From sequence record OL631257.1: 64,000 nucleotides of DNA; one strand, written 5' to 3'. Below are positions 22,807 to 55,444 of this stretch, piece after piece. The notes beneath the pieces are model-generated. The model did not search any database. It worked only from the letters and a program-made list of their open reading frames with translations, and was not told the origin of the DNA. The position numbers and the translations under genes were made by a program. This DNA comes from Escherichia phage ECCR664. Every line of letters begins with the position of its first letter. The first letter of the stretch is position 1.

Positions 22807-23907
22807 TTACGCTGTGAAGATTTTATCCCACATCGCAACAACTGCATCTCGGTTATACTTCTTCCATACTGCTTCAGCACGTTTAACTCGAGCTTCGTAT
22901 GTGTCAGTGAATTCTAATACAGCTTTTGTGTAAAGCGCAACTACTTCTTTCTTAGGAGTAGAAGAATCAATTTCTACACGCACAGTATCTGGGTCGTATT
23001 CGAATGTCGCATGCGGATAATCCTTAAAAACTAACTGGATTACAGGGACACCTTTAGAAATGGCTTCAATAGAACTATTCTCTACCGTACCCGTGTCAGG
23101 ACACGTATTGATAAGTGCTTTAGCTGTTTTAAGACGTTCCATGATTTCACTGTGTGGAGCATCAATAATAACAGGATATTTAGCTGGTGGTGCCCATTTG
23201 CTTGGACAATAACCAATACCATTTTCGCCTAGTGCTTTAATTGCTTCAAGAGCAACATCAGTGCGACGCATCTTAGTGTCATAACGTTGAGCACTAATAA
23301 TCAAATCAGTTGCCGGAAGAACTTCAGGTTTTTCATTCAAACAAATAACCGGGTAGTCATCAGGTTCAAATAATGGATTTTCACGCCAGTAGTCATAATC
23401 AATTTTGTCAGTAAGAGCTGAAGTCATATGACAATATTTACGTTCAAATTCACGGAATGCTTTAGTAGGAGCATAGCTCTTCCCACCGTTCTTGTGAATC
23501 TGGATAGTCTGATCCCAAATTTGAACAATACCACGAGACACCGGTTCAAACGGCGTAGCCATAAAATTCTTATGAACTTTAGAGAGTCCAGCATCTTTAA
23601 TTGCTTGGACGGTTAGTTTAGTCGGTTCCATAGTAACAACAAAATCGTATTCATGGATGCCGGCTAGTTCAACGATCTTACGAGCCATAGTATAACTCAT
23701 ACCTAGACTGAATTTAGTCAGATGACCAACAGGATGGTGTGTAACCTTCCAATCACCAAATGTGTCATTATCAAAACCAATATAATCAATATCAGCACCG
23801 ATGGACACAAGATATTTCAACACATTTAAATGTACTGCTTCAAGACCACCTTGTACACGTTCTGGGTTAAACGGGACTGCGCGAGATGGGATAAACATAA
23901 CTTTCAT
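22807..23907 (-). CDS. GT-B fold glycosyltransferase (candidate DNA hmC sugar transferase)
   Basis: Intact 366-aa ORF; C-terminal region GTVENSSIEAISKGVPVI fits the GT4/GT-B donor-binding motif E-x7-E ...G.PV(V/I); sits immediately after rIIA where T4 has rIIA.1/gene 60. Confidence 0.55.
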   Translation of the reverse strand: MKVMFIPSRAVPFNPERVQGGLEAVHLNVLKYLVSIGADIDYIGFDNDTFGDWKVTHHPVGHLTKFSLGMSYTMARKIVELAGIHEYDFVVTMEPTKLTVQAIKDAGLSKVHKNFMATPFEPVSRGIVQIWDQTIQIHKNGGKSYAPTKAFREFERKYCHMTSALTDKIDYDYWRENPLFEPDDYPVICLNEKPEVLPATDLIISAQRYDTKMRRTDVALEAIKALGENGIGYCPSKWAPPAKYPVIIDAPHSEIMERLKTAKALINTCPDTGTVENSSIEAISKGVPVIQLVFKDYPHATFEYDPDTVRVEIDSSTPKKEVVALYTKAVLEFTDTYEARVKRAEAVWKKYNRDAVVAMWDKIFTA

Positions 23908-31590: not shown

Positions 31591-32335
31591 TTAACCTTTA
31601 ATCAGTTGGAATAATGATGCGCTAAGTGGTAAGCCACGTTTCAATTTTAATTTACCAATGAAACCAATCTTTTCAAAACGTTGCAGACCTTGAATAACTT
31701 TATCATATGTATCGAAAAGCGATTCAGCGTCAGTTAATTTAGTTTTAGTTTTCCAGTCAGAGCCTTTAAGAAGAACGTTGAGTTTAGTAAGTTCATGTCC
31801 TTCCGCTTGATGTGAACCATTAATGCGTGCTTTCAAAGCAACAATTCTAAGTTTAGATTCGTTGGATAAAGGTTGATTTTTCATCATGTTCGCCATATGC
31901 TTAACACGATTTTCACGTTTTGCTCGGATTTTTAAAATAGTACCATAAACCTTTTGATTTGGGCCCATTTCTTCTCATCAAGATTAAGTTTCTCTACTTT
32001 ACGGGCAGAAGGATTAGCGATACGCCTTGCAATGGCATCACGTTTCTCAATAAGTTCTTCTAATGTTAAATCAGAACGAGCAGTGTTATATTTTTCTTAA
32101 CTGGGATAACATTACCTTTAATGTAGCCGATATCGTTATTAAAACGTTCTAAGGATAATTTCTCACCTTCAACAGCGTTATTGAAAGATTCACCTGAGTA
32201 AGCGCAGACCTTTTGATCAAGAATGTTTTTAAGGTAATTAAAGTCTAAGTTAAAATCCTTAGAGCGTCTCTTCGCAGAAGCTCTGGTGTGGTCAAGACGA
32301 CGATTGATTTTGTTAATTTTATTATTTGATAACAT
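31591..32335 (-). CDS. Hypothetical protein (~248 aa with two frame breaks); positional equivalent of T4 srd
   Basis: ORFs 32066-32335 and 31591-31968 are linked by a frame-shifted segment; assignment is positional only. Confidence 0.3.
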
Positions 32336-39148: not shown

Positions 39149-39396
39149 TTATTCTTTTTCGCGAATAATAATTACTTGTTGAGGCTGCTGAGCAGATTTC
39201 TTTTCGGCAACGATAGACCAAATTAAAGTTCCAATCCAACCAATCATCGTCCAGTTAAAGAGTAAAGATACAAAGAAGATTGCTGTTGTGCTTTTGTGCC
39301 ACGAATAAGTGCGATTACCCAAGGCAACATGTAAATGATGATTGAACCAATACCTGCGATTAAAACTGCTACTGAACTAGCTACGAATAATTCCAT
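39149..39396 (-). CDS. Small inner-membrane protein (~80 aa, one frameshift)
   Basis: MELFVASSVAVLIAGIGSIIIYMLPWVIALIRGTKAQQQ... and after frame repair ...LLFNWTMIGWIGTLIWSIVAEKKSAQQPQQ. Confidence 0.35.
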
Positions 39397-39457
39397 GTTA
39401 ATTTCCTCTTGATTTGTTATGTTTATAATATCTTGTTTTAACTTTGGCGTAAACCAA

Positions 39458-39826
39458 TTAATTAAATTTGTTTAAACGTTCAACACACTGGACGTAGTTA
39501 TTCGCGATTTGTTTCTGGGTAGGCTCTTTACCAGTTGTTTCAACATAGCGAATGAATGCGATTTCAGTAGCCTGTAAGCAATGTTCTTTAACGCGTTGTT
39601 CTTTTGACAATGCTACAGTATCAGAGTCACGATAACGTTGAGCATGGGCATCAGCTTGAATCATTCGATTACCTACAGTAACCGGGTCTTCTACTTCAAC
39701 TTTAGGTTGGTTGTACTGTTTAACATTCGGGTTATAAATCAATTGACCAACATTATTAGGGATAAAGCCGTGAGCACCACATCCAGTTAATCCGAATACC
39801 ATTGCTAGAGCGATTAATTTTTTCAT
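39458..39826 (-). CDS. Predicted lipoprotein (122 aa)
   Basis: Signal peptide MKKLIALAMVFGLTGC with lipobox L-T-G-C. Confidence 0.5.
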   Translation of the reverse strand: MKKLIALAMVFGLTGCGAHGFIPNNVGQLIYNPNVKQYNQPKVEVEDPVTVGNRMIQADAHAQRYRDSDTVALSKEQRVKEHCLQATEIAFIRYVETTGKEPTQKQIANNYVQCVERLNKFN

Positions 39827-42562: not shown

Positions 42563-42911
42563 GATAACTCCTTAAAAGAATTTAAATTTTTCTTGGTTCG
42601 TTCATTAAAAGCTTGTTGTACCTGCATTGTAACACATTTTTCAACATGTGGTGCAAGTTCTGCTTTTCTGTCCTGGTCAAGAACTGCAAAGTCCATTACG
42701 ATTTTACCATCAACCCAGTCTAGTTTTGTAATATAGACTATATGATGGGAACCGTCTTCAAGTGTAATCAGAATCTCTTGAATGACATTTTCCATTGCTG
42801 AACGGATAATTTTAAGAGATTCATTAAACACTCGTTCTTTGCGAATGTCTTCCCTTCCGAAGAAGGGGATTCATCAACGATTTCTAGATTTAAATCATCG
42901 AGATTATTCAT
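42556..42911 (-). CDS. 40: gp40 head vertex assembly chaperone (one frameshift)
   Basis: Starts MNNLDDLNLEIVDESPSSEGKTFAKNE then continues as ORF 42556-42831; position between uvsX and 41. Confidence 0.55.
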
Positions 42912-44074
42912 CGAAATCTTCCATTTCGTCAAGGTCGTTTTCAATATCTGCTGCAGACGGAGCATCAGAAGCTTTAACCGGAACTTTAGTTGTTGCTTTG
43001 CAATTAATAAGGTCGTTAACAGCGTCATCAACTTCTTTAATAGAAGAGATAGCACCTAGTTTATATTTAGTTTCAATTGCATCTCGGAAAGGTTTGTGTT
43101 TAAACAACGGCCCCCAGAATTCTACGCAATCAGTAGCTTTAGCACGCCATGATTTCTCTTCACGAATCATTTCACCTGTTTCTTCGTCAAGGAATTCACG
43201 AGCATACCAACCAGCTTTAGGTTTAACCACAAAACCAATTTCAGTTGCCATTTCTAACAAGCCACTGAATGGGTCAATACCGCCATCAAAATTAACCGTG
43301 ATTGGGAAAGTAGATTTCTCTTTAACTGTACGAGATTTTTCTGCTTTCAACGTGAAGTCATAACCGGTCAATTCTGTACCTTCTTTAACCTGACGTTTAG
43401 AGATAAAAATACTGTGTTAGCAGAATAAAGAATACCTGTACCACCGCCCATAATCTCTTTAGGATATAGTCCGCCGATTTCCATTGCTGTATGGTTGATT
43501 GCAACACATGGAATATCTTTAATAGTCAGATACGGGGTTACAATACGGAAAAGAGATTTAAGTGCCTTAGCACGAGACATATCACCTACGACTTTCTCGT
43601 TCAATGCATCTTCGGTTTCTTTCTTAGATGCAGTGTTACCGATTGAATCGATAAAGATAATAACTTTATCACCGCGTTCAATCGCGTCAAGCTGATTAGT
43701 CATATCAACTTTAAGTTGTTCGACGGACTGAATTGGTGTATGAACTACACGGTCTAAATCAACACCCATTGAACGGAAGTAAGATTCTGAAGCACCGAAT
43801 TCTGAGTCATAGAACAAACAGATTGCATCTTTATATTTCTTCATATACGCTGCAACCATAGTTAGTCCAAACAATGTTTTAAAATGTTTAGAAGGTGCAG
43901 CAAAATAGTCAAGCCTGATTGCAATCCTGCATTCAGAGCACCACCTAGTGCAATATTCAACATCGGAATACGAGTAGGGACTTCATCACGATTATTAAAC
44001 AGCTTAGACTTAGTCAAGTCTGCAGTCATTTTAGAAGTAGAAGCTTTAATCAGACGAGATTTTAAATCAGACAT
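42904..44074 (-). CDS. uvsX: UvsX recombinase (RecA-like; two frameshifts)
   Basis: Three consecutive fragments (43862-44074, 43368-43874, 42904-43371) giving ~390 codons; acidic C-terminus DLDEMEDFDE. Confidence 0.85.
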
Positions 44075-44173
44075 TGTATTTTTCCATAGGCATCATTATA
44101 TTTTACTCATGTTTAAAAGATAAGATGATTATATACTAAGAGTTATACAGCATTTAAAACTTTAAACAGGCTC

Positions 44174-44722
44174 TTAACGAGCCCATTTGATAATTTCTGT
44201 AATCAAATTATTACGTTCGCTTGCATTAAATCCTATAACTTTGTTAGCACCATCATGATTAAGTAATTGATACGTTTGGATTTTGTTATGAATTGCAAAC
44301 TCTTCAAAATGTGAAATGACTGTATTAAAACCGAATGAAGACAAAGTAATAAGATCGTCTTCAAAACTTTCAGTCATTTCGTTACGTGTTAAAATAATTG
44401 TGAACACATCATGGTTTTGGCAAAGACGAATATAATCCTGTTCATAAACGTCAAGAACCGAGTCCGCATCTTGTCGAATACGTCCATAAACCCAGTTACT
44501 AATATATCCACGGTCTAACAGATAAATCTTAGTAGGGTCTAAATAATTCAACATCGTTTCGAAACAGCCAACTTCATTTCGAGACTTAACATCGAAACGT
44601 CCATCAACTGTTCGTTTAGGGAAATCAATCTTTACATATCTTTCACTAATTTCCATTATGTCATTAATGAAAGTTGTTTTACCAGCATTATCCGGTCCGT
44701 CTACTAAAATAATTTTAGCCAT
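44174..44722 (-). CDS. P-loop nucleotide kinase (thymidylate-kinase-like)
   Basis: Walker A VDGPDNAGKTT at N-terminus and LLDRGYISNWVYG (DR motif); occupies the site of beta-gt in T4. Confidence 0.55.
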   Translation of the reverse strand: MAKIILVDGPDNAGKTTFINDIMEISERYVKIDFPKRTVDGRFDVKSRNEVGCFETMLNYLDPTKIYLLDRGYISNWVYGRIRQDADSVLDVYEQDYIRLCQNHDVFTIILTRNEMTESFEDDLITLSSFGFNTVISHFEEFAIHNKIQTYQLLNHDGANKVIGFNASERNNLITEIIKWAR

Positions 44723-44723
44723 T

Positions 44724-45623
44724 TTATTCCTCGATTACGACATCTTCGTATTTAGGTATATTATACGGTGAAGAAATTAAAGCATTAAAGTAGATGAACT
44801 CACCAAGACCTGGATGGAATACTTCTTCAGGATTTTCGAAATATTGAATCTTCGGACGTCCTTTAAGAATTTGATAGTACTCAGTTTTAGTTGGATTAAA
44901 AATTCGAATCAGCGCTTCTTCGGGATACTTATTTCTGTCGAAACTATTATTTGGATCAGTTATATAAAGCGGTTGACCTAATTGAATTGCGCATTCAACC
45001 ACTTGTTCAAAACGATAGCATGGGTCACTAATTCGAAATGGATGAAAAATACCATCTAGATGAATAGGAGCCAAATCACCTACAAGACGCTGCATGACGG
45101 AAGGACGTATAACTTTCTGCGTTACGATAATCTTATTACCATCTGCACCTGCGTTAACCAGCACTTCTTTTTGACGTTCATTCAACACAGTAGTTTGAAG
45201 TGAACGATTAACCGACAACATATCGGTTTTTAAGAATTCGTCAATATAAAAACGTGGTTTATTAGGGTCTGCAGTGATATTGAAATTGAATTCCACATCA
45301 AAAGCGCCGTCATATCCGGTGATATCTGTGATTAGAAAATCACAATCATAATAAGCAATTAATGAATCAACCACAAATTCATTTTCAGACCAGAAATATT
45401 TACGAGTGTTATACGCGTTATCTTTATACCATAATGGAACAAACTTAAATTCTGGGAAAAGACGTTCACATTCTTTAATATCGGATGCATTACGTGGATA
45501 TGTAATCACATCACCTGGATTAGCACGGTGCAAATGAAGTTGGAAGTTGCCATCCTTAAGGATAGCATACTGTCCAGTTTCATAAGACCGCATACTCAAG
45601 ATTGGTACGCGGAAAATAGCCAT
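44724..45623 (-). CDS. Hypothetical protein (299 aa) in the gene-42 operon
   Basis: Intact ORF, tightly packed between the kinase and gene 42 (1-nt spacers/overlaps); no motif recognised. Confidence 0.4.
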   Translation of the reverse strand: MAIFRVPILSMRSYETGQYAILKDGNFQLHLHRANPGDVITYPRNASDIKECERLFPEFKFVPLWYKDNAYNTRKYFWSENEFVVDSLIAYYDCDFLITDITGYDGAFDVEFNFNITADPNKPRFYIDEFLKTDMLSVNRSLQTTVLNERQKEVLVNAGADGNKIIVTQKVIRPSVMQRLVGDLAPIHLDGIFHPFRISDPCYRFEQVVECAIQLGQPLYITDPNNSFDRNKYPEEALIRIFNPTKTEYYQILKGRPKIQYFENPEEVFHPGLGEFIYFNALISSPYNIPKYEDVVIEE

Positions 45624-46339
45624 TAGTCAAGGAATCCTTTAACATAATCAAAATCACGTTCAAACACATGGGCACTTACCATGGTATGAGTATAATCACC
45701 AACTTCTACACCACATTCGTTAGCGATATAATGAAGTAATTTTCCTTGGAGATAAAAATCCAACTGCATAACAACAGCACAGTTCTGAGAACGCATATGA
45801 CAGTGGGTATAAAGCTTACCATCACGAATATAATAAGTCACTGAGTCAGTACATGGATATTCAAGTGTTTCGTCCGAATCAAGCAAAGCCTGATCAGAAC
45901 TTTCTAGAATTTGGAACACAACTCTTCGAGAGTTAGGTTTCTCTTTAAGTTCTTTTAGAAGAGCTGGTAATTGGGCCACAATGCGAGGACCGTAGAAAGT
46001 GTTGAAGTTCGCCGGCAAAACATCTGATTTTGGTTTAGAAATAAATTTAGCGACATTAGGATATGCCTTAAACGCTTCTTCTGCGTTGGTACCACCAGAA
46101 ATCATAAACTTCCAGAAGTCTTCGGCATATTCATAAGAGATGCGGTTAATACGTGGGTCGGTCATTTTGAATGATGATGGAGTGTCAACAACTACTGTCA
46201 TGGACCCGATTTCATTACAACGTCCAATACGAGAATCAGTTACGAATTCGGGGTTTTCTAAAATTTCACGATTGACTGCTTTAAATGCGGCTTGAAAATC
46301 TGCGGCTTTGATATATTTCATTGTGTTATGTTTTCCCAT
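45623..46339 (-). CDS. 42: gp42 dCMP hydroxymethylase (thymidylate-synthase family)
   Basis: ...YPCTDSVTYYIRDGKLYTHCHMRSQNCAVVMQLDFYLQ... aligns with the T4 gp42 active-site region (CT..V.Y.IRD......MRS.D). Confidence 0.7.
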   Translation of the reverse strand: MGKHNTMKYIKAADFQAAFKAVNREILENPEFVTDSRIGRCNEIGSMTVVVDTPSSFKMTDPRINRISYEYAEDFWKFMISGGTNAEEAFKAYPNVAKFISKPKSDVLPANFNTFYGPRIVAQLPALLKELKEKPNSRRVVFQILESSDQALLDSDETLEYPCTDSVTYYIRDGKLYTHCHMRSQNCAVVMQLDFYLQGKLLHYIANECGVEVGDYTHTMVSAHVFERDFDYVKGFLD

Positions 46340-46621
46340 GTTTACCTCAATACAATTTATTATATACTCAATTCGTAAAGCTTATTTGAATTTCTTGGCA
46401 ATGTTGATATAACGTAAAGCTTCAGAATCTATACTTCCAAGAACACTATGAAGGAATGCATCAGTGTAGTATTCCAATTGAACAGGTTCTTTAATCACTT
46501 TAGCCGCTTTGGTTTCAAACAGGCCCATAAGGGCCTTTTAAGAATTTGTTCGTTAGTGTTCAGTTTTATAGTCAAAATCTCTTCATTAAGTTTATAATTA
46601 AAAGTTTTTCTAGAAATCATT

Positions 46622-47774
46622 CCGGGTACCTCAAAGCGTCATCAGAGTTAGTTATATCAATAATAGATATAGAGTTTTCTGATAACCCATTTTTAGATAA
46701 CTGACGTTTATAATATCTTTCACAATATGTACACGTCGTCCCGCAGATTTCATTAGCACAATCGAAATCTGGATGTCTGAACCACCTTTTTCTAAAAAGC
46801 CATCTAACAAAGAGGTTTCAATATTTACTGTATGTGAAAACTCAGTCTCATTTTCAAGAGTGAAAATAGTCTCTAAAGGCTTCCACAGTTCTAACAAATT
46901 ACCTTCAAACTTTTCAGAAGCGTATGCTTCAAGAACTTTCAAAATGTAGTCGGTGCTACCTGTACGTCCTGAAACTTTGAATTGAGTGATACCAATATCA
47001 TTATAAAGTTTCAAATCTTGAGGACGAACAAAACGAGTTCTCAACCAGTTAAATGGGTCTGTATCACGAGCTTTAATACAGTGCTGCATAGGATATCCGT
47101 TTAAGGATTTAGCATCATCAGCTGTAACATCAGTACTATGGAAAATATAGCAAGAGTCACGATAGCTACAATGTGTTGTATACCCTTTACCAGCATTAGA
47201 ACAGAACTCATTTACAAGAACTTCAAATATTATATTGTTCTTATTGCAAAACTCTGCTGCACGCTTCAGGAAAGAAACTGAACGGTTCTTATGAATTCCG
47301 CAGCAGACTTTTTTGATGTTATATTGGTCGTGCAAGTATTTGATTTGAGTTACAGCATCAACATGTAGAATTGTTGAAACTTCAATCTCAATGTCTTTAT
47401 TGACTTCACGAACAATTTCCATAACAACAGGGTTAGCGATAGTAATACGCCATACGCCTATTGACCAAAGATACTGAACATAATCCTGAATAGCTTTCTT
47501 CTTCCACTCAACTAGTTCTCTTTTGAACCAGGATTTATCGTGTTGAGTGTATAGTTAAAGCAAATACCTAATTCGTTACAACGTTTAACGTAGTCTTCTA
47601 ACATCTTTTGTCAACGTCAGGAAGCCTAAAATCAGGTCTGGCTGCTACAAAAGCCATTTCTCTTGTAGAACCATATACTTCGTTTATCAAGCTATTAGGA
47701 TAGGTTTTATTGAGCTCTACGATTTTATCAAGAAGAGCTAAATCAAAATTCGTTCCGATTTTAAAAGTATTCAT
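46622..47774 (-). CDS. Hypothetical protein (~380 aa, at least two frame breaks); Cys-rich C-terminal segment
   Basis: N-terminal MNTFKIGTNFDLALLDKIVELNK...; 256-aa fragment 46652-47422; an alternative frame near the 3' end encodes ...FDCANEICGTTCTYCERYYK (CxxxCxxC). Confidence 0.35.
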
Positions 47775-47828
47775 TTTTGCATCTCGCGTTAATTGATGCG
47801 ATGGTTTTTGCAGGTCTTACTTAAATTA

Positions 47829-48230
47829 TTATAGATTCGGTTTATACGATTTAAATGTTTCGAATTCGCCTTTATTCATAAGAGCTTTGAATTCGTCAGG
47901 ACGCATAGCTTTGTCGTCGATAATCCAATCATATACTGGTTTATGTGTTAGCAAATTATGGTACTTCAAACCAATGTTTTCCAAGTTCTGAATCAGACTT
48001 GGGAGAATGTCAATTGCTATACGACCAGGACCTACCGACTTCATACCACGAGCCGTGTAAAGCGTTATGGTATGCCCTGCATCATACAGGGCATTAATGG
48101 CGGACACCATTTCGACGTCTGGTTTGAAGTTCACGTAATCACGATTGTTATTCCACTCTGTTATACAATCATCGACATCAAAACAAAGATTAAGCATGTT
48201 TTCTACACGGTGCATTAGATTCGTTCCCAT
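47829..48230 (-). CDS. HAD-superfamily phosphatase
   Basis: Motif I LCFDVDDCIT, motif II ...TLYTARG, motif IV WIIDDK; true start probably the internal Met MLNLCFDVDD. Confidence 0.55.
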   Translation of the reverse strand: MGTNLMHRVENMLNLCFDVDDCITEWNNNRDYVNFKPDVEMVSAINALYDAGHTITLYTARGMKSVGPGRIAIDILPSLIQNLENIGLKYHNLLTHKPVYDWIIDDKAMRPDEFKALMNKGEFETFKSYKPNL

Positions 48231-48285
48231 TGATGAGTGATATCGCCACCGATTGGACGATAGGAAACACCAGTTTCTTTATCAG

Positions 48286-49104
48286 TTAGTACCCATTTAC
48301 CAGGATTTTTGTAATCAGAGTAGCCGTTACAGGTTCTGCTACGTCATAACTAATAGAGCCGTCCTGAAGTACACGGCCCATGTTACGTAATTGCTTAGTC
48401 AGAAGTTCCATGCCTTTATAATATGCGGCTACCGCTTTAAGTGGATTATTCTTGAAATAACCACCTAATGCAATCCAGATAATTGCTACTGCCAAATGAT
48501 GATACTCGTTAAACGAACTCATCTTTCCATATTTGTAAACTAGTGGATTGATGTTAATAGTCACATTACAAGTTGTTTCATCAATAATAAACTGGCCCCA
48601 GGTCGGATTAGCGTTGAATTCATCATAACCTGAAACAGCATAAAGCACTTTAGCTTCATCATACAATTTTGGCCCGTAAATCTTGGTTTCACCAAAATAT
48701 CCACGAGGGTCGATAAACTTGACTTCGCCGTTATCAGTAATCATGGTATTACTGAAGTTCGGGTCACCGTGAATAACAGAGTACTGTCCCTGAGAACGGT
48801 TATGATAACGAATAAGGTGTTCTAAAGCTTGTTTCAACATTGGCTTCAGACGTCCAATCTTAGTGTAGTTCACACGTGTGATTTTACCAAATGAATCAAT
48901 CAATGGTTGAATGCTTTCACAACGATCAATAACTTTCGTATAGAATTCTTTAGTGAAATCACGACGAACAGTTTCAGGACTTACAAAATAAGCGTCTGTG
49001 CTGAATTTCAGTGCATCTAAAATTGCATCAACAATTTGTGGACGAGCAAGACTTGATTTGGATTTAATATATTCAAATGCTGGCTTACCTTTAATACGTT
49101 CCAT
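48286..49104 (-). CDS. Kinase of the aminoglycoside-phosphotransferase / choline-kinase fold (putative sugar kinase)
   Basis: Brenner-type catalytic motif VIHGDPNFSNTMI followed by KFIDPRGYFGE. Confidence 0.55.
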   Translation of the reverse strand: MERIKGKPAFEYIKSKSSLARPQIVDAILDALKFSTDAYFVSPETVRRDFTKEFYTKVIDRCESIQPLIDSFGKITRVNYTKIGRLKPMLKQALEHLIRYHNRSQGQYSVIHGDPNFSNTMITDNGEVKFIDPRGYFGETKIYGPKLYDEAKVLYAVSGYDEFNANPTWGQFIIDETTCNVTININPLVYKYGKMSSFNEYHHLAVAIIWIALGGYFKNNPLKAVAAYYKGMELLTKQLRNMGRVLQDGSISYDVAEPVTATLITKILVNGY

Positions 49105-49130
49105 AATAAAGTGGCCGCCAGGATGATAAC

Positions 49131-49900
49131 TTACAATCCGTGGAACTGAATCTGATTTAACTTTCTTATACCAATTGACTTCATCTTTTGAAGTGCAACG
49201 CCCTGTTCTGTTAAAGCAATCTTTGTTACCGTTTCTTCGCCAATTTCAACTGCATTAAAACTACGATTAAGTTCACGAACTTCATGAGCTTTTTCAAGTT
49301 TAGGCATATCACCAAGGTCGATGATATTCATAAGCTCTGATTTATTGAATGCGCCGCTGTAAAGGAATTCTACAAAATCACGTCCTTTGCAGTATTCGTG
49401 AATTTCCTCATCAGTAGAACCCATGTAGAATTCCCAGTCTTTGAACTGATAAATTCCTACAACATTACCGCCTGTTGAACCTACGTTAGTGATATTTTCA
49501 CCATCGAAATTATATCGACATTCATCACCTTTAACATAGATTGCGTTAACATTCCAAGACCATGAACCAAAATCAGGAATAATATCACACCAGTTAACAA
49601 CTACGTTATGGCCGTCTAAATCTTTATGTAATTTAGCAAGAGCATAAGCAGAACCATACGCTTCATCAACTGTACGAATAGTCACATTGAACCCTTCTTG
49701 CTCACAATAAGCTCGAACGGTTTCAGCAAATTTTGAATGAACTACTACAATAATTTCATCTGCGCCAAGGTCAGAATAAATTGTGTACAAATTGCTCAGA
49801 ATAGTGTCTTGTTTATAGTTCACAAGAACTTTTGGAATATGGTGAGTAATTGGATATAAACGAGTTGCCAATCCAGCACCAAGAATAACAGCTTTTTCAT
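49131..49900 (-). CDS. Sugar-phosphate nucleotidyltransferase (frameshifted near N-terminus)
   Basis: After frame repair N-terminus reads MKKAVILGAGLATRLYPIT, the G-x-G-T-R-L-x-P-x-T nucleotidyltransferase signature; 246-aa fragment 49131-49871. Confidence 0.6.
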
Positions 49901-49941
49901 GTTGAAGTCCTCATTGGTAAGTAGGTGTATTGTACACTATT

Positions 49942-50085
49942 CTAGTTAAAGCATTCATACTTTGCCTGTAGACCAATCATAATCCATCCAATTACAAGTG
50001 TTGGAATCATTACTGGAGCCGTTAAGCTCCAGTAGATAGTCATGACAAGCATCAATAGTAAAAGTCCTATTGTTATTGCTTTCAT
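49942..50085 (-). CDS. Small membrane protein (47 aa), position of T4 imm
   Basis: MKAITIGLLLLMLVMTIYWSLTAPVMIPTLVIGWIMIGLQAKYECFN; ATGA overlap with the SIS gene stop. Confidence 0.35.
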   Translation of the reverse strand: MKAITIGLLLLMLVMTIYWSLTAPVMIPTLVIGWIMIGLQAKYECFN

Positions 50086-50716
50086 TGTTCGCCTCGTAAC
50101 ATGGCACCTAGTGCACCGCCAGGGTGGAACTTAAGGAAGTCATTAGAGGTAAATCCACGTTCAGACGAAAGGTTGATAGCGAACGTATCGATAAGCGCTA
50201 ACAACAATGTAGTGGACATTGTCGGAGCTAAAGAGTTCTCGTCGACTTCCACCGCGATACCGGTACAGAACGTATAATCAAAAGAGCTTCGTATTCTTGC
50301 GGAATGTCAGGGTTACAATGTAACAGAATCTGTTTAACCTGAGGACGAATCATACGAAGATGTTTAGCAACACCTATCATTTCTTCAGTCTTACCAGAAC
50401 GACTAATATGAATCAACACATCATTAGGCGCAATGAATCCTGCATCACCGTGAGAATAATGCCCGGTGTTCAAGTACATACTCGGGATACCGAGTGAAGC
50501 AAATGTCTCAGAAGCTTTAGTTGCGATATTAGCGTTCTTACCAACACCTGTAATAATTACACGACTTTCATAATTACTCAGTCCAGGGCGTCGAAGAGTT
50601 TCTAGAATAGCATTATAACGAGCAGGGTTTTGACTAATTACTTTAGCCATGGTGGCAAGAGATGAAGCTTGTTTTACGATTGCGTCAATAGCGATAGTGA
50701 TTGGTGTAGTTTTCAT
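50082..50716 (-). CDS. SIS-domain sugar-phosphate isomerase (KdsD/GutQ-like; one frameshift)
   Basis: ...ITGVGKNANIATKASETFASLGIPSMYLN...VLIHISRSGKTEEM and, after frame repair, C-terminal ...FHPGGALGAML. Confidence 0.6.
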
Positions 50717-50756
50717 ATTTCTCTCATTTAATTAGTTGGCCGTCCTTGGCATTATA

Positions 50757-53466
50757 TCAAAAATCGAACATATCGAACAGAGATGCTTTCTTCTCGTAAT
50801 CGAGTTTCGCTGCTGATGTGAATCCTTCAAGTGGTTTAATAAATGTCTTCTCAAGGAGAACCGTGTAGTCCATCCAATGAAGTACGTCGTCTTTAATTAA
50901 ATCTGTGATTTCAGTACCAGAAGGCCATGCGATACATTTATCACCGAATGGGTTTCCTTCACGTAAAGGCAGAACATATACTTTTTCACCTTCTACAACT
51001 TGTGGTGCATCAATATTACCTTTAATAGCCCGGTTATACGTCAGAATTCCACGAATATGGAACGGGCATTTGGGACCAGGGAATCCACCAACGTCATATT
51101 TAGCAATGTTATTCGCAGAAGATACCGACGCAATGCTAATATAATTCAATTGACGGAATTCTTTTTCAAACTCTTTAAAATATTCTTGTAATGATTCTTC
51201 ACCTTCTTGAAGCATACGACGAATACATTCTTTAAGAGCTTTCTGTACCGCTTTAGGAGTTGAAGATTTCTGTGTTTCGAGACCCATGATTTTGAGTTTA
51301 GGCTCAGCGTAACGAGTACCTTCCATATCCCACACGTTTAATGCATAACGTTTCTTACCAGTCCAGAATCCGCCAATACCTTTAGAACCGAGCGGAGGAC
51401 CAGCGATAGCTTCTCGGTCCATGAACATCAAATGTTGCTTATTATTCATGTATTCGCACATTTCACGGAAACCTCTATCAATAGCTGGTTCCATACGTTC
51501 ACGTGCAAACTTATCTAAGAAGTCTACCCAATGGTTGGTATCACGGAATTTAGATTCACCAACCTTATCAATAATTTTATCAGCAGATACGTAAATAGAG
51601 TCTGTATCACCATAAAGAACGAAAGCTTCACCTTCTGTACCACAAACTTCATTCAGATATTCATTAACTTTACGTTCAATCCACTGTAAAGCCATTTGAC
51701 CAAATGTTGTGATTGCAGTAGCATTACGCAAATCGTAATAACGGAACCAAACGTTGCCAAGTGCACCATAAAGTGAGTTGATAAGCAATTTACGGTTAAT
51801 TTGTGCAGTCATACCTGCAACTTCAGTACGTTGAGCTCTAAACAACATTTCATTAAGAGATTTAGCAGACAACTTTTTAATCTTTTCTTTAATCTCATCA
51901 GTGAAGTCGAAACGATAATCAACATCTAATGGTTCGTCAACAGAAAGATTAGGATTATGCAATGCCTCTTTAATTATTTCACCATTACGTTGAGCTGCAA
52001 GCATGTAACCTTTATGTTCTTTACGTTGATTAAAGACCTTAGTGATTTCAGTTGGAACTACACCGTCACGGTCTTTATAATACATCATGCCGTTAGGAGA
52101 GCAACTGTACACATCAGAAGGACGTTCAGCAACAGCGTTAATATAATCATGCAGTGGAGCTACTTTAAACGTTCCTGCTATTGTTTCTGGGCTAATATTC
52201 ACTTGGCGAATAATACTTGGATACAGAGATGTAAGGTCGAAACTCATTACATATTTGTATCGATTTGGAATAGGTTCCTTAACAAAAGCGCCAGGATAAG
52301 GTTGAACCGGGTGAGAACGACCTTGTGGAATCACCTTGTTTTGTTCTTTAAGGCTATTAAAAATAATAGCATCCCATGTTTTAATTGGGCTAAACACAGA
52401 TTGAATCTGTATCTTAGCATAATAACCCATGTCCAAACTCAAGTTGATGAACTGACGCTTAGCATCAATTTGCAATACACGATACACGTCGATAATGTTA
52501 TAAGAAATATATCGTTGGTGATTGCTTTCACGAAGCTTAGAAATAGGACCGTCATATTTCAGTTTACCGACATTCAATTCAAATTCTGAAATGTAATCCA
52601 GAGAATACGACGGTTGATTGGTAAAGAGAATTTTTGTAAAGGTCAATGTAATCAAGAACAGAGATACCGAACAATGTAATGATTTCACGAGAACCATACA
52701 TGTTTTCGATAACTTTAACACGAGTTTTACGATGTGGTGATAAACGTTTCGCAGTAGATTCGCCAAAAATATTTTTGATTCGGTTATACACATATGGAAT
52801 ATCAAATGACTCAACGTTCCATCCAGTCAAAATGACAGGAGTTTTCTGTTGCCAGAAGTTGAGATATTCCATCAACAATTCTTTTTCGTTATCGAACGGC
52901 ATATAAATGATTTTATCAATAATTTCGGATGGAACTTCATCACCACCTTGTTCTTGAAGCTTAGCTGCAATTTCGATAGACCATTCTTCTACATTACCAT
53001 ATGGAGAATTCAATAGATCAAATACGTAGAACCTGTCGTCAATTGAGTCATAATGGGTGATAGCATCAATCGGATGTTTTGCTTGTGACGGCTCAGGAAA
53101 CCCATCCGGAGATGTTACTTCGATGTCGAAGTTAGCCACACGAATTTTTGTATGGACGTATTTGATTTCATAGTTATAAGTGTCAGACAAATACGCTAAT
53201 TTGAAATCGTCCATGCCAAGTGCTTCAAGTCCGATATCTTCCATGCGTTTAATCCATTGGGAGGCATCACGCATATTAGCGAACAACTTACGAGTACATG
53301 GCTTACCGTAGATATCGAAATATTTCGTAGCCTGACTTTCCGGACAATGAGCAAACAGTGATGGTTTATATTCTACTTCACGAGTACGTTCACGGCCATT
53401 AGAATCGATGTAACGTTCAAAAATTGAATCACCAATCTGTTCAACCGTTAAGTAAAATTCTTTCAT
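50757..53466 (-). CDS. 43: gp43 DNA polymerase (family B; one frameshift near 52600)
   Basis: N-terminal exonuclease fragment 52579-53466 (MKEFYLTVEQIGDSIFERYIDSNG...FDIEV...) and polymerase fragment 50757-52814 (...SLYPSII..., ...YGDTDS..., ends ...KKASLFDMFDF); ~903 codons. Confidence 0.9.
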
Positions 53467-53524
53467 TTAATTTCCTTTAGACGAGTTATTGTCTTTTGTT
53501 TGTTGATGAACTTATTATACTCCA

Positions 53525-53544
53525 AATGGGACCGAAGTCCCATT
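53525..53544 (-). terminator. UUCG-tetraloop hairpin between regA and gene 43
   Basis: aatgggac-cgaa-gtcccatt (8-bp stem); weak U tract, so it may be an RNA structure rather than a strong terminator. Confidence 0.4.
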
Positions 53545-53547
53545 GCT

Positions 53548-53916
53548 TTAATTACCAATTGTATATTTTGCTTTCAAAGTCCAGTCATCTTTCTGTTTAA
53601 AAGAGATAACACGGAAGTTATTAGTCAAGCCAAACAGATCTTCACGAGCAGAGTCTTCAATAACAATTAATCCCCAGTCTTCAAGCAACTGAGCGATCGA
53701 ATCACGTCGCTGATAGTCTTCACCATCGATATCAACTTGTCGTCCGTCCATACGCAGCATTTCTTTAAAGTGGACGATGTAGTATTTACCTTGCTTTTGG
53801 AGGATATGACAGGACTGATAAAGAACTTTATCCTTGTTATTAGCGATGCCCATACGGGTCAAAGTCTCTTTGACTTTCAGAAAATCTTCAGGGTTCTTCA
53901 ATTTAATTTCAATCAT
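53548..53916 (-). CDS. regA: RegA translational repressor
   Basis: Start at MIEIKLKNPEDFLKVKETLTRMGIANNKDKVLYQSCHILQK; 122 aa as in T4. Confidence 0.85.
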   Translation of the reverse strand: MIEIKLKNPEDFLKVKETLTRMGIANNKDKVLYQSCHILQKQGKYYIVHFKEMLRMDGRQVDIDGEDYQRRDSIAQLLEDWGLIVIEDSAREDLFGLTNNFRVISFKQKDDWTLKAKYTIGN

Positions 53917-54480
53917 TTTTACCATTCCAATGCTAATTTTTAAATTGTTTTTGTTCTTTTACGTTTTTAGTAACTTCTTTGAGAAACTCATCAGTGACCA
54001 TGGCCTTCAGTTCTTTAAGGACTATTGGCAACTTGTTATTTTTTCAAGGAGCCGCTTATACTCGGTAGCATCATTCATGTTGATTGTGTAATGTTTCATC
54101 AACAGTTTGATAACTAGTAACTCTGAAGTGTCTTCGACTAGTTTAGCCCATTTAGAGAATCGACGACCACGCGGAATTGCCGCCATCATATAGTTGAAGT
54201 GCGCTTCATCACTTAATTCAGAACCGACTAAGTTCATCATGTAAACGGCTGGCATACATTCTGGGAACTGGGATAGTGAGTTCTCAACCATAAATTTTGA
54301 GTAGTCGACCTGAGCAATTGACATAGATTTCTTTTCATTAATAGCATTAATGATTTTAAAGAATTCATTCTCAGGTTTTTCTTTAAACATATCAGCACAT
54401 TTTTGAATCGCATCAGCGTCATTAGACTTCCATGCAATTTGGTGCTCGTTAAGCTGGACGTCATCATCGAATAAGTTCAT
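53917..54480 (-). CDS. 62: gp62 clamp-loader small subunit (one frameshift near 54030; 3' end approximate)
   Basis: [35 protein letters not shown]...[30 protein letters not shown]..., T4 gp62-like. Confidence 0.75.
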
Positions 54481-54481
54481 A

Positions 54482-55444
54482 TTATTTCCAAGTCAGTTCG
54501 CAGGTCAGTTGAAGAAGCATATACATAACATGTAATTCAATATTACTTGCTAGTCCATGAAACTTATTATTTTCGCCTGCAATTTCGTAAAGCGAAATAA
54601 TACTTTTACCAGGTGCAACTTGGTCATAACATTCTGAAACTAATTTATCGATGAACCACGAATAATCTGCAGCATATTTTGGAGCTAATGCACGAAGCTG
54701 TTTGATATCTTTGTTCTTCATTGCTTCGATAACATCAGAGACTGTTCCACGGTCATTAGTTACGATAGACAGAATACCTGCATCAAGAACACCTTTAGAC
54801 GAGTACTGGTCTAATTGGCCAATTGTACGACGAAAGTCTGGGAAGTTCTTTTTAACCAGAGCTGCAACAACTTTCATATCAGCGATTTCGATATTTTCGT
54901 TCTTACAGATTTCAACCATACGATGAATCATTTTCTTCATCATCGAGATTTTATCTTCTTCAGTCGGACGACCGAATTCGATAACTCGACAACGGCTACG
55001 TAATGGTTCAATAATTCCGTCAATGTTGTTAGCAGTGATAATAATAGAGCAGTTACTAGAGAATTCTTCCATAAACGTACGAAGGTGACGTTGTGATTCG
55101 GCGAGGCCACTACGGTCAAATTCATCAATAACAATAACTTTAGGCTTGCCTTCCATTGAGACTGAACGAGCGAATGCAGTTAACGGACCACGCACAAAAT
55201 CAATCTTACAATCAGAACCGTTGACGAACATCATTTCGGCATTGATATCATTACATAATGCTTTTGCTACGGTTGTTTTACCTGTACCAGGAGAAGGAGA
55301 GTGCAAAATAATATGAGGAAGTTTTCCTTTAGATACTAAAGACTTGAATGTTTCGTGGTCATACGCAGGCAGAATACATTCGTCAATGGAAGAAGGACGA
55401 TATTTTTGTTCTAGAATGTGTTCTTTGGAATTGATAGTAATCAT
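54482..55444 (-). CDS. 44: gp44 clamp-loader large subunit (AAA+ ATPase)
   Basis: Intact 320-aa ORF; Walker [15 protein letters not shown] box, SRC motif [10 protein letters not shown]. Confidence 0.9.

Follow-up and report, generated by a model that had tools for sequence, protein, structure and literature searches.

A probable sugar-donor branch of RB69-type arabinosyl-5-hydroxycytosine DNA hypermodification in Escherichia phage ECCR664, and a tentative function for its U32-family protein

The DNA of phage RB69 carries alpha-D-arabinofuranose (alpha-D-Araf) and the disaccharide beta-D-Araf-(1->3)-alpha-D-Araf, ether-linked to 5-hydroxy-2'-deoxycytidine, as determined by tandem mass spectrometry (MS/MS) and nuclear magnetic resonance (NMR) (Lee et al. 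2026, PMC13326640). The modified nucleotide is prepared by gp48, a ThyA homolog that binds flavin, incorporates 18O from O2 and yields 5-hydroxy-deoxycytidine monophosphate (5-hydroxy-dCMP), and the substitution D169N has been proposed as a predictive signature of such synthases (PMC13326640). Araf-O-5-cytosine in virion DNA has been established for RB69 and for phage NP (PMC13326640, PMC13390438), while the original assignment as arabinosylated 5-hydroxymethylcytosine (ara-hmC) has been termed erroneous (PMC13390438). Here we describe a gene cassette at positions 46,622 to 50,716 of a 64,000-nucleotide stretch of Escherichia phage ECCR664 (record OL631257.1; the whole stretch is called the window), which an earlier note, made from the sequence alone, had read as a sugar-activation cassette lying between genes 42 and 43. 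This cassette is very probably the sugar-donor branch of RB69-type arabinosyl-5-hydroxycytosine DNA hypermodification, and it also encodes a protein of the U32 family.

The sugar branch has been traced in phage HY126. In the account of He et al. (2026) that is relayed in PMC13326640, ribulose-5-phosphate (Ru5P) is turned successively into Araf-5-phosphate (Araf5P), Araf-1,5-bisphosphate, Araf-1-phosphate (Araf1P) and uridine diphosphate-Araf (UDP-Araf) without passing through the free sugar: the bifunctional AfhE converts Araf5P to the 1,5-bisphosphate, the HAD protein AfhF strips the 5-phosphate, after which AfhE makes UDP-Araf. According to the same relayed account, UDP-Araf was obtained from arabinose-5-phosphate (Ara5P) with AfhE and AfhF alone. 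The HAD enzyme is similar to the heptose-1,7-bisphosphate phosphatase GmhB, and for the transfer of the sugar the gp46:47 type has been proposed as the first arabinosyltransferase, the gp3 type being the second (PMC13326640). Already in 2018, ORF055c and ORF53_52c were singled out for UDP-arabinose synthesis, and the split of RB69 ORF53/52 was attributed to a sequencing error (Thomas et al. 2018, PMC6024577). The pathway is already known, having been proposed in 2018 and provided with biochemistry and structures in 2025-2026. The cassette picked out in ECCR664 is a rediscovery, whose value lies in the correct call and in two corrections, namely 5-hydroxycytosine as the base and a sugar-bisphosphate route.

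The open reading frame (ORF) listing bears out a block of co-oriented genes, all on the minus strand, flanked by the DNA polymerase gene and by a thymidylate-synthase homolog (Table 1). A megablast search with positions 46300-50900 returned 194 phage records, 152 of them with at least 80% query coverage; the closest relatives are Mosigvirus (RB69-like) phages at 96-98% DNA identity, and by this similarity the source phage is assigned to the RB69-like Mosigvirus. When positions 42800-54500 were aligned to Shigella phage SHSML-52-1 (97.4% identity over 11.6 kb), 17 insertions or deletions appeared in the main alignment (42855-54039), nearly all of them 1-nt deletions in homopolymers of at least four bases. 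Nine of the 17 fall between 46536 and 50280, and homopolymer deletions also break gp43 (52623, 52631) and uvsX (42855, 43410, 43906). This pattern is typical of homopolymer under-calling, and any ORF-level reading of the window requires frame repair. Since the deletions are of the 1-nt homopolymer kind and reach gp43 and uvsX as well, the frameshifts are best explained as sequencing artefacts and not as pseudogenisation, in agreement with the technical origin that had been supposed for the broken frames. Gene lengths and coordinates are given after frame repair.

In the repaired proteins, Pfam detects SIS (4e-10), NTP_transferase (9e-10) and Peptidase_U32 (7e-11) domains, as well as a Thymidylat_synt match, and the motifs HPGGALG, FDVDDC, IHGDPNFSN and GAGLATRLYPIT, on which the first recognition of the enzymes was based, can all be located. 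The four enzyme families named at that time are upheld, but the kinase and the nucleotidyltransferase are not separate enzymes: they form one protein of 562 aa, in which NTP_transferase covers residues 3-99 and weak APH/fructosamine-kinase matches cover residues 237-410, with a weak EcKL match too for the kinase part. In relatives the corresponding AfhE-type gene is a single ORF of 1689 nt. A sequence search of the PDB with this protein returned distant nucleotidyltransferases only (best 1jyk, 1.9e-5) and no close structure. The SIS protein matches 3etn (7e-25), 5uqi and 2xhz, an E. coli arabinose-5-phosphate isomerase (API), and is 99.5% identical to its SHSML-52-1 ortholog, and the HAD protein is near-identical to 9iqw (9e-87) and also matches 1xpj (1e-10). 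A heptose pathway was considered as well, since RefSeq labels the HAD gene 'phosphoheptose isomerase'; it was rejected, because the gene product is a phosphatase of the HAD family and the matches of the SIS protein are arabinose-5-phosphate isomerases.

As for the base, the flanking gene had been taken for gene 42, encoding a dCMP hydroxymethylase. Its product is about 97% identical to PDB 9iqc/9ir2/9iqu and only 25% identical to T4 gp42. In an alignment, this protein and its orthologs read RSQN...QLD, which corresponds to D169N plus N177D in E. coli ThyA numbering, with the catalytic Cys in YPC; T4 gp42 reads RSND, with Asp at the 169 equivalent, and E. coli ThyA reads RSCD...FN. The double substitution is thus that of a 5-hydroxy-dCMP synthase. 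The D169N signature, the near-identity to 9iqc and the chemistry of the RB69 ortholog together argue that the acceptor base is 5-hydroxycytosine and not 5-hydroxymethylcytosine (hmC), so that, of the system first predicted, an activated pentose donor of the phage's own for cytosine hypermodification stands and hmC as the base falls. In accordance with that prediction, homologs of alpha-gt and beta-gt were not found within the 64-kb window (tblastn E > 1), and the glycosyltransferase ORF reported far from the cassette is real, its product being near-identical to PDB 9iqz/9ir0. What had been overlooked is a second glycosyltransferase and a kinase just downstream of the supposed gene 42, in the same module; a PDB sequence search with this 299-aa glycosyltransferase gave no match. 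Altogether, the features that define membership of the Afh cluster are all present: a D169N ThyA homolog, a single-SIS API, a one-polypeptide AfhE, an AfhF-type HAD and two arabinosyltransferases. The RB69 arabinose pathway, offered in the earlier note as a candidate, is therefore supported by near-identity to characterised proteins, and its reservation that the matter could not be decided from sequence alone has been overtaken by the characterisation of a near-identical system.

In ECCR664, the SIS isomerase would divert host ribulose-5-phosphate to D-arabinose-5-phosphate. The C-terminal kinase domain of the 562-aa enzyme would then phosphorylate C1 to give arabinofuranose-1,5-bisphosphate, the HAD phosphatase would take off the 5-phosphate, and the N-terminal nucleotidyltransferase domain of the same enzyme would join Araf1P and uridine triphosphate (UTP) into UDP-D-Araf. 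In parallel, the ThyA homolog would hydroxylate dCMP at C5 by means of O2 and flavin, kinases would bring 5-hydroxy-dCMP to the triphosphate and the polymerase would incorporate it. Finally, the two glycosyltransferases would add a first and then a second arabinose to the 5-hydroxyl. The second to fourth of these six steps and the hydroxylation are experimental for orthologs in the literature and would apply here by near-identity; the isomerase step and the order in which the transferases act are what we infer.

Several points weigh against this assignment. The chemistry comes from orthologs, the assignment for this phage being made by near-identity, and for the order of the steps we depend on He et al. 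(2026) in the version given by Lee et al. (PMC13326640), a paper whose Table 1 keeps the older free-arabinose order in some rows, so the literature is not fully uniform. UDP as the carrier has been established for HY126 and for the transferases of DLP3, which are other phages than this one, and the role of the first arabinosyltransferase is a proposed one (PMC13326640). The route originally suggested, in which a ketose-5-phosphate would lead through an aldose-5-phosphate to free arabinose (by the HAD), to arabinose-1-phosphate (by the kinase) and to a nucleoside diphosphate-arabinose transferred onto gene-42-made hmC, calls on the same four enzyme families (Pfam), on the ara-hmC reported by Thomas et al. 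(2018) and on those rows of Table 1 of PMC13326640 in which dephosphorylation gives free arabinose; it is nevertheless highly improbable and largely refuted already by the D169N signature and the low identity to T4 gp42, by the NMR/MS and 18O2 data that demonstrate an ether bond to 5-hydroxycytosine and the dismissal of ara-hmC (PMC13326640, PMC13390438), by the HY126 enzymology in its relayed form, which goes through the bisphosphate, and by the GmhB-like character of the HAD.

The gene of the cassette that none of the six pathway steps needs is the one listed in the earlier note as an unknown of about 380 aa. The ORF is real (386 aa), and its product is now a U32-family protein, with a Pfam score of 42.2 bits against a cut-off of 22.4. 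Among the E. coli members of this family, UbiU/UbiV, RlhA (5-hydroxycytidine, ho5C2501, in 23S rRNA) and TrhP (5-hydroxyuridine, ho5U34, in tRNA) have been associated with hydroxylation that needs no O2, and for UbiU/V the oxygen donor has been demonstrated to be prephenate, which chorismate mutase produces; the same donor has been proposed for the U32 family (PMC10990095). By analogy, the phage protein might be an O2-independent enzyme that depends on prephenate and hydroxylates C5 of dCMP, or of cytosine within DNA, a proposal that we hold tentatively and rate a little below an even chance.

Characterised U32 proteins hold their 4Fe-4S clusters by conserved Cys. Ten Cys are conserved at 98-100% among 121 phage U32 homologs: C158, C177, C192, C203, C209 and C233 reach 98-100%, and C340, C345, C349 and C352 (CX4CX3CX2C) are invariant. 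In the hhalign comparison, two of them, C203 and C209, fall on the CX6C of RlhA, although the overall spacing differs from CX6CX15CX3/4C, and a motif FK(I/V)xGR is common to the phage and the E. coli U32 proteins. A structure model, built on an 87%-identical homolog and not on the window protein, has a mean confidence (predicted local distance difference test, pLDDT) of 90.9 and forms a TIM-barrel whose best PDB fold match is the U32 protein 5d88. Profile comparison with the E. coli paralogs (hhalign) gives a probability of 76% for RlhA, 7.6% for TrhP and 5% for UbiU. Pairwise BLAST against UbiU, UbiV, RlhA and TrhP yields nothing significant, only profile methods connecting them, and a PDB sequence search with the protein had no match. 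No other gene of the module is as well conserved as U32: identity is at least 99% in 152 records and at least 80% in the remaining matches, compared with 150 records at 95-99% and values of 42-72% in other genera for AfhE. Across genera its conservation equals or exceeds that of gp43 and UvsX. In the literature, its RB69 ortholog gp50 appears as a table entry only, under 'sugar or heterocycle reductase' (PMC13326640), and a preprint on phage Tn-seq contains nothing on the gene.

The gene occurs in 221 phage records and is confined, among them, to T4-like phages and Shewanella phage Thanatos-2; Acinetobacter is absent from the ten names that occur most often. For AfhE, homologs are present in 373 phage records, 57 of them from Acinetobacter, a strict aerobe. 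The locus of Acinetobacter phage AM101 and that of the E. coli Dhakavirus JS10 carry the full arabinosylation set without U32, as does the published DLP3 cluster (PMC13326640). These three cases indicate that arabinosylation can do without U32 and that the lack of U32 does not strictly go with aerobic hosts. In nine phages, from eight named non-Mosigvirus genera plus Thanatos-2, a Pfam-significant chorismate mutase with conserved catalytic residues stands between U32 and the ThyA homolog. In Thanatos-2 the pair is found elsewhere in the cluster, which suggests that U32 and the mutase move as a unit. No chorismate mutase was found in this window, nor in Mosigvirus generally.

Uncultured viruses extend this picture. 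We scanned 47 IMG/VR loci with a U32 homolog using hidden Markov models of the families, 15 of them from Straboviridae and 32 others (24 after merging near-duplicates); counts for the latter refer to genes within 10 kb of U32. In all 15 Straboviridae loci U32 lies within the modification cluster and adjoins the ThyA homolog, and in 13 of these a chorismate mutase follows U32. Among the 32 other loci, a gp45-type kinase is present in 25, a gp46:47-type glycosyltransferase in 22, AfhE in 16, a KdsC-like HAD in 15, a chorismate mutase domain in 10 and API in 9. A ThyA-superfamily gene occurs in a single locus (L041), where it is of the canonical D169/N177 type and no 5-hydroxy-dCMP synthase. In these non-Straboviridae loci, U32 takes the place held by the ThyA-type hydroxylase in cultured phages. 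In L060, a distant T4-like interval from gp43 to uvsX, U32 is accompanied by HAD, kinase, glycosyltransferase, API and AfhE, and a ThyA homolog is missing. Genes for dCMP deaminase and dUTPase/dCTP deaminase (DCD) also occur immediately beside U32. In jumbo-size contigs the mutase directly follows U32; a DAHP synthase-chorismate mutase fusion lies adjacent to U32 or one gene off in L051, L052, L054 and L055, and DAHP synthase alone lies near it in L021 and L039. Viruses with DAHP synthase near U32 appear to push host carbon via the shikimate pathway toward prephenate.

In most related genera, U32 would work with the adjoining chorismate mutase; its part in RB69-like phages would be that of a reserve for the O2/flavin synthase of ThyA type, making hypermodification possible in the anoxic gut, while in many uncultured viruses, jumbo-size contigs included, where glycosyltransferase, kinase and sugar-activation genes of the same kinds are present and no 5-hydroxy-dCMP-synthase homolog is nearby, it would be the sole hydroxylase. 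An alternative route to the 5-hydroxyl handle, oxygen-independent and prephenate-dependent, is the most economical reading of this gene, and we put it at roughly even odds. A number of considerations speak against it: the hydroxylase activity is a prediction by analogy; the Cys spacing is atypical; some E. coli phages manage without U32; the 10 kb examined leave room for ThyA homologs beyond them; and the linkage to AfhE and API fits a role in sugar metabolism too. In addition, Mosigvirus has no mutase of its own and would need PheA and TyrA of the host; these are the two chorismate mutases of E. coli, and anaerobic ubiquinone synthesis stops when both are lost (PMC10990095). A literature search, with He et al. 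2026 and Mahler et al. 2025 lying outside it, found nothing linking phage U32 proteins to prephenate or hydroxylation.

A role of U32 in sugar metabolism, for instance as a reductase or epimerase tailoring the pentose or a precursor, would account for its position inside a sugar cassette, for the AfhE homolog nearby in half of the non-Straboviridae loci, and for the labels it has received, be it the reductase entry of PMC13326640 or 'putative enzyme involved in UDP-arabinose biosynthesis' in the BASEL-collection annotation. We regard it as unlikely. AM101, JS10 and, in the literature, DLP3 complete the arabinosylation set without U32, AfhE and AfhF suffice for UDP-Araf from Ara5P in the relayed account (PMC13326640), and RB69 DNA bears only unaltered D-Araf (PMC13326640). 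Besides, seven loci (L042, L046, L047, L053, L056, L067 and L024) combine U32 with a glycosyltransferase and a kinase and have no AfhE or API, other loci place it beside dCMP deaminase or dUTPase, and the literature consulted mentions no U32 enzyme with a sugar substrate. Less probable still is a collagenase-like peptidase (RefSeq) or an RNA modifier like TrhP/RlhA unrelated to DNA modification, as the 'peptidase' annotations and the rank of the rRNA hydroxylase RlhA as nearest E. coli paralog by profile would have it, given that the gene is restricted in phage records to T4-like phages and Thanatos-2 and stands in the modification cluster in 15/15 T4-like IMG/VR loci, that its conservation across genera exceeds that of gp43, that the same glycosyltransferase and kinase recur beside it in unrelated viral lineages, and that the characterised U32 members treated in the literature consulted are tied to hydroxylation, not proteolysis (PMC10990095).

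Some of the uncultured loci depart from the arabinose theme. L024 (5465-13179) contains a kinase, a gp46:47-type glycosyltransferase, U32, a TET-associated-type glycosyltransferase, dUTPase/DCD and UDP-galactopyranose mutase, and no ThyA homolog; this cluster is possibly devoted to a different glycosyl-5-hydroxypyrimidine modification. One contig (L008/L009, U32 at 8001-9098 in L008) carries two divergent U32 paralogs in a nucleoside-salvage context, along with a radical-SAM/SPASM protein, NT5C, a deoxynucleoside kinase, a nicotinamide mononucleotide (NMN) transporter and a nucleoside deoxyribosyltransferase-like gene. In L007 and L022/L023 (contigs of 60 to 466 kb with a gene for DNA polymerase III alpha), dCMP deaminase, U32, a 248-aa unknown and SSB follow one another in conserved order and no glycosyltransferase is nearby, which hints at a hydroxylated pyrimidine without sugar.

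The cassette as a system being known, only the hypothesis on the orphan U32 gene is new, and it can be tested. If the hydroxylase proposal were true, this would be the first case of a U32 enzyme that acts in DNA modification, and of a step in a viral pathway that depends on prephenate; a large U32 subfamily of viral contigs, so far uncharacterised, would acquire a substrate class, and prephenate-dependent hydroxylation would reach beyond quinones and RNA to the precursors of DNA. The published hydroxylase requires O2 and the hosts are gut enterobacteria, and a module of U32 and chorismate mutase would explain how modification proceeds without oxygen.

Table 1. Genes of the cassette and related features of the window, with coordinates after frame repair
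Feature	Coordinates	Strand	Length and remarks
gp43 DNA polymerase, upstream flank	50757-53466	-	903 aa; split by two homopolymer deletions
SIS arabinose-5-phosphate isomerase (API), RB69 gp55 ortholog	50082-50716	-	211 aa; 1-nt deletion at 50280 repaired
Hydrophobic transmembrane ORF	49942-50085	-	47 aa; start overlaps API stop codon
AfhE-type nucleotidyltransferase + kinase, RB69 gp52:53 ortholog	48215-49900	-	562 aa; deletions 48306, 49186, 49893 repaired
HAD phosphatase, AfhF-type, RB69 gp51 ortholog	47829-48230	-	128/133 aa; DVDD motif
U32-family protein, RB69 gp50 ortholog	46617-47774	-	386 aa; deletions 46787, 47521, 47606 repaired
Small ORF, RB69 ORF049c type	46382-46620	-	79 aa; 1-nt deletion at 46536
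ThyA homolog, 5-hydroxy-dCMP synthase type	45623-46339	-	238 aa
First arabinosyltransferase candidate, RB69 gp46:47 ortholog	44724-45623	-	299 aa; 98% identical to relatives
Thymidylate-kinase-like nucleotide kinase, RB69 gp45 ortholog	44174-44722	-	182 aa
uvsX	42904-44074	-	390 aa
Second arabinosyltransferase, RB69 gp3 / ORF003c ortholog	22807-23907	-	366 aa; PDB 9iqz/9ir0, 7e-250
imm + imm.1 homologs, outside cassette	39152-39820	-	tblastn: imm 1.5e-22, imm.1 2.7e-15

The two small ORFs of the block deserve a comment. The 79-aa ORF sits in the slot of the chorismate mutase of other genera and belongs to a separate small-ORF family, whose members turn up as an additional small ORF in phages of Yersinia, Pectobacterium and Serratia and stand beside a true chorismate mutase in the first two. 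Its reading as a degenerate chorismate mutase was rejected, with negative results by Pfam (no CM_2), NCBIfam and BLAST and an hhalign probability of 0.1% against the phage mutase alignment; weak matches to chorismate mutase/DAHP synthase at 31594-32096, elsewhere in the window, were likewise judged spurious. This ORF evolves far faster than its neighbours, most Mosigvirus copies being 86-100% identical, compared with at least 99% for U32. Homologs of the 47-aa ORF occupy the same slot in 10/15 Straboviridae loci (47-100% identity), the counterpart in phage LC53 being annotated 'Transmembrane segment(s)'; this strongly hydrophobic ORF would place a membrane peptide within a cytoplasmic sugar-nucleotide operon.

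The T4 interval between genes 42 and 43 holds imm and imm.1, and not imm alone as had been supposed. Here their homologs are some 6.5 kb away from the '42' homolog; the imm homolog is found in two pieces, with 67% and 59% identity to T4 imm, so it is frameshifted too. A promoter and terminator scan gave no more sites than in shuffled sequence. A sigma-70-like match at 47855-47828 on the minus strand (TTTAAA, 16-nt spacer, TATAAT) lies just 5' of the U32 start, but does not count as evidence for a separate promoter, the whole scan having given fewer sites than shuffled controls. Public labels of these genes (L001 = NC_031090, L004, L012) are misleading: the HAD is called 'phosphoheptose isomerase' or 'polynucleotide kinase', U32 'peptidase', the first glycosyltransferase 'RNA polymerase binding protein' and the 5-hydroxy-dCMP synthase 'deoxycytidylate 5-hydroxymethyltransferase'.

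Compared with the RB69 gp45-gp55 and HY126 Afh clusters, the locus presents an identical gene set and order, 96-100% protein identity, the same signature residues and near-identical PDB structures for three components (ThyA homolog, HAD, second glycosyltransferase); the differences are strain-level only, apart from the sequencing-error frameshifts of the window. With the glucosyl-hmC system of T4 it shares the gp43-uvsX slot, a ThyA-superfamily enzyme that makes the modified dCMP and phage glycosyltransferases that add the sugars. Nevertheless, T4 introduces a folate-derived hydroxymethyl and takes host UDP-glucose, whereas here the C5 hydroxyl would be placed directly by flavin/O2 chemistry and the phage would make its own sugar donor, homologs of the T4 glucosyltransferases not being found in the window.

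The synthesis of ADP-L-glycero-beta-D-manno-heptose employs the isomerase GmhA, the bifunctional HldE and the bisphosphate phosphatase GmhB. The present route would follow the same logic, with a SIS isomerase, a sugar-bisphosphate kinase, a HAD removing the distal phosphate and a nucleotidyltransferase, kinase and transferase being fused; it differs in handling a pentose, in an APH/choline-kinase fold instead of a ribokinase fold, in a GlmU/MurU-like transferase and in UDP instead of ADP as carrier.

Finally, the phage U32 protein resembles RlhA, TrhP, UbiU and UbiV of E. coli in its domain, the FK(I/V)xGR motif, the conserved Cys, two of which align with those of RlhA, and a possible tie to prephenate supply, suggested in viruses by chorismate mutase and DAHP synthase. 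In contrast, it is very distant in sequence, its Cys spacing is C-x10-C-x5-C-x23-C instead of CX6CX15CX3/4C, the phage family has the additional invariant C-terminal CX4CX3CX2C, and its presumed substrate would be a deoxynucleotide or DNA, the activity being predicted only. E. coli possesses O2-dependent/O2-independent pairs, TrhO/TrhP and UbiI,H,F/UbiU,V; although in the phages the pairing is one that we infer, here too an O2/flavin hydroxylase stands beside a U32 protein, and both would possibly lead to the same product.

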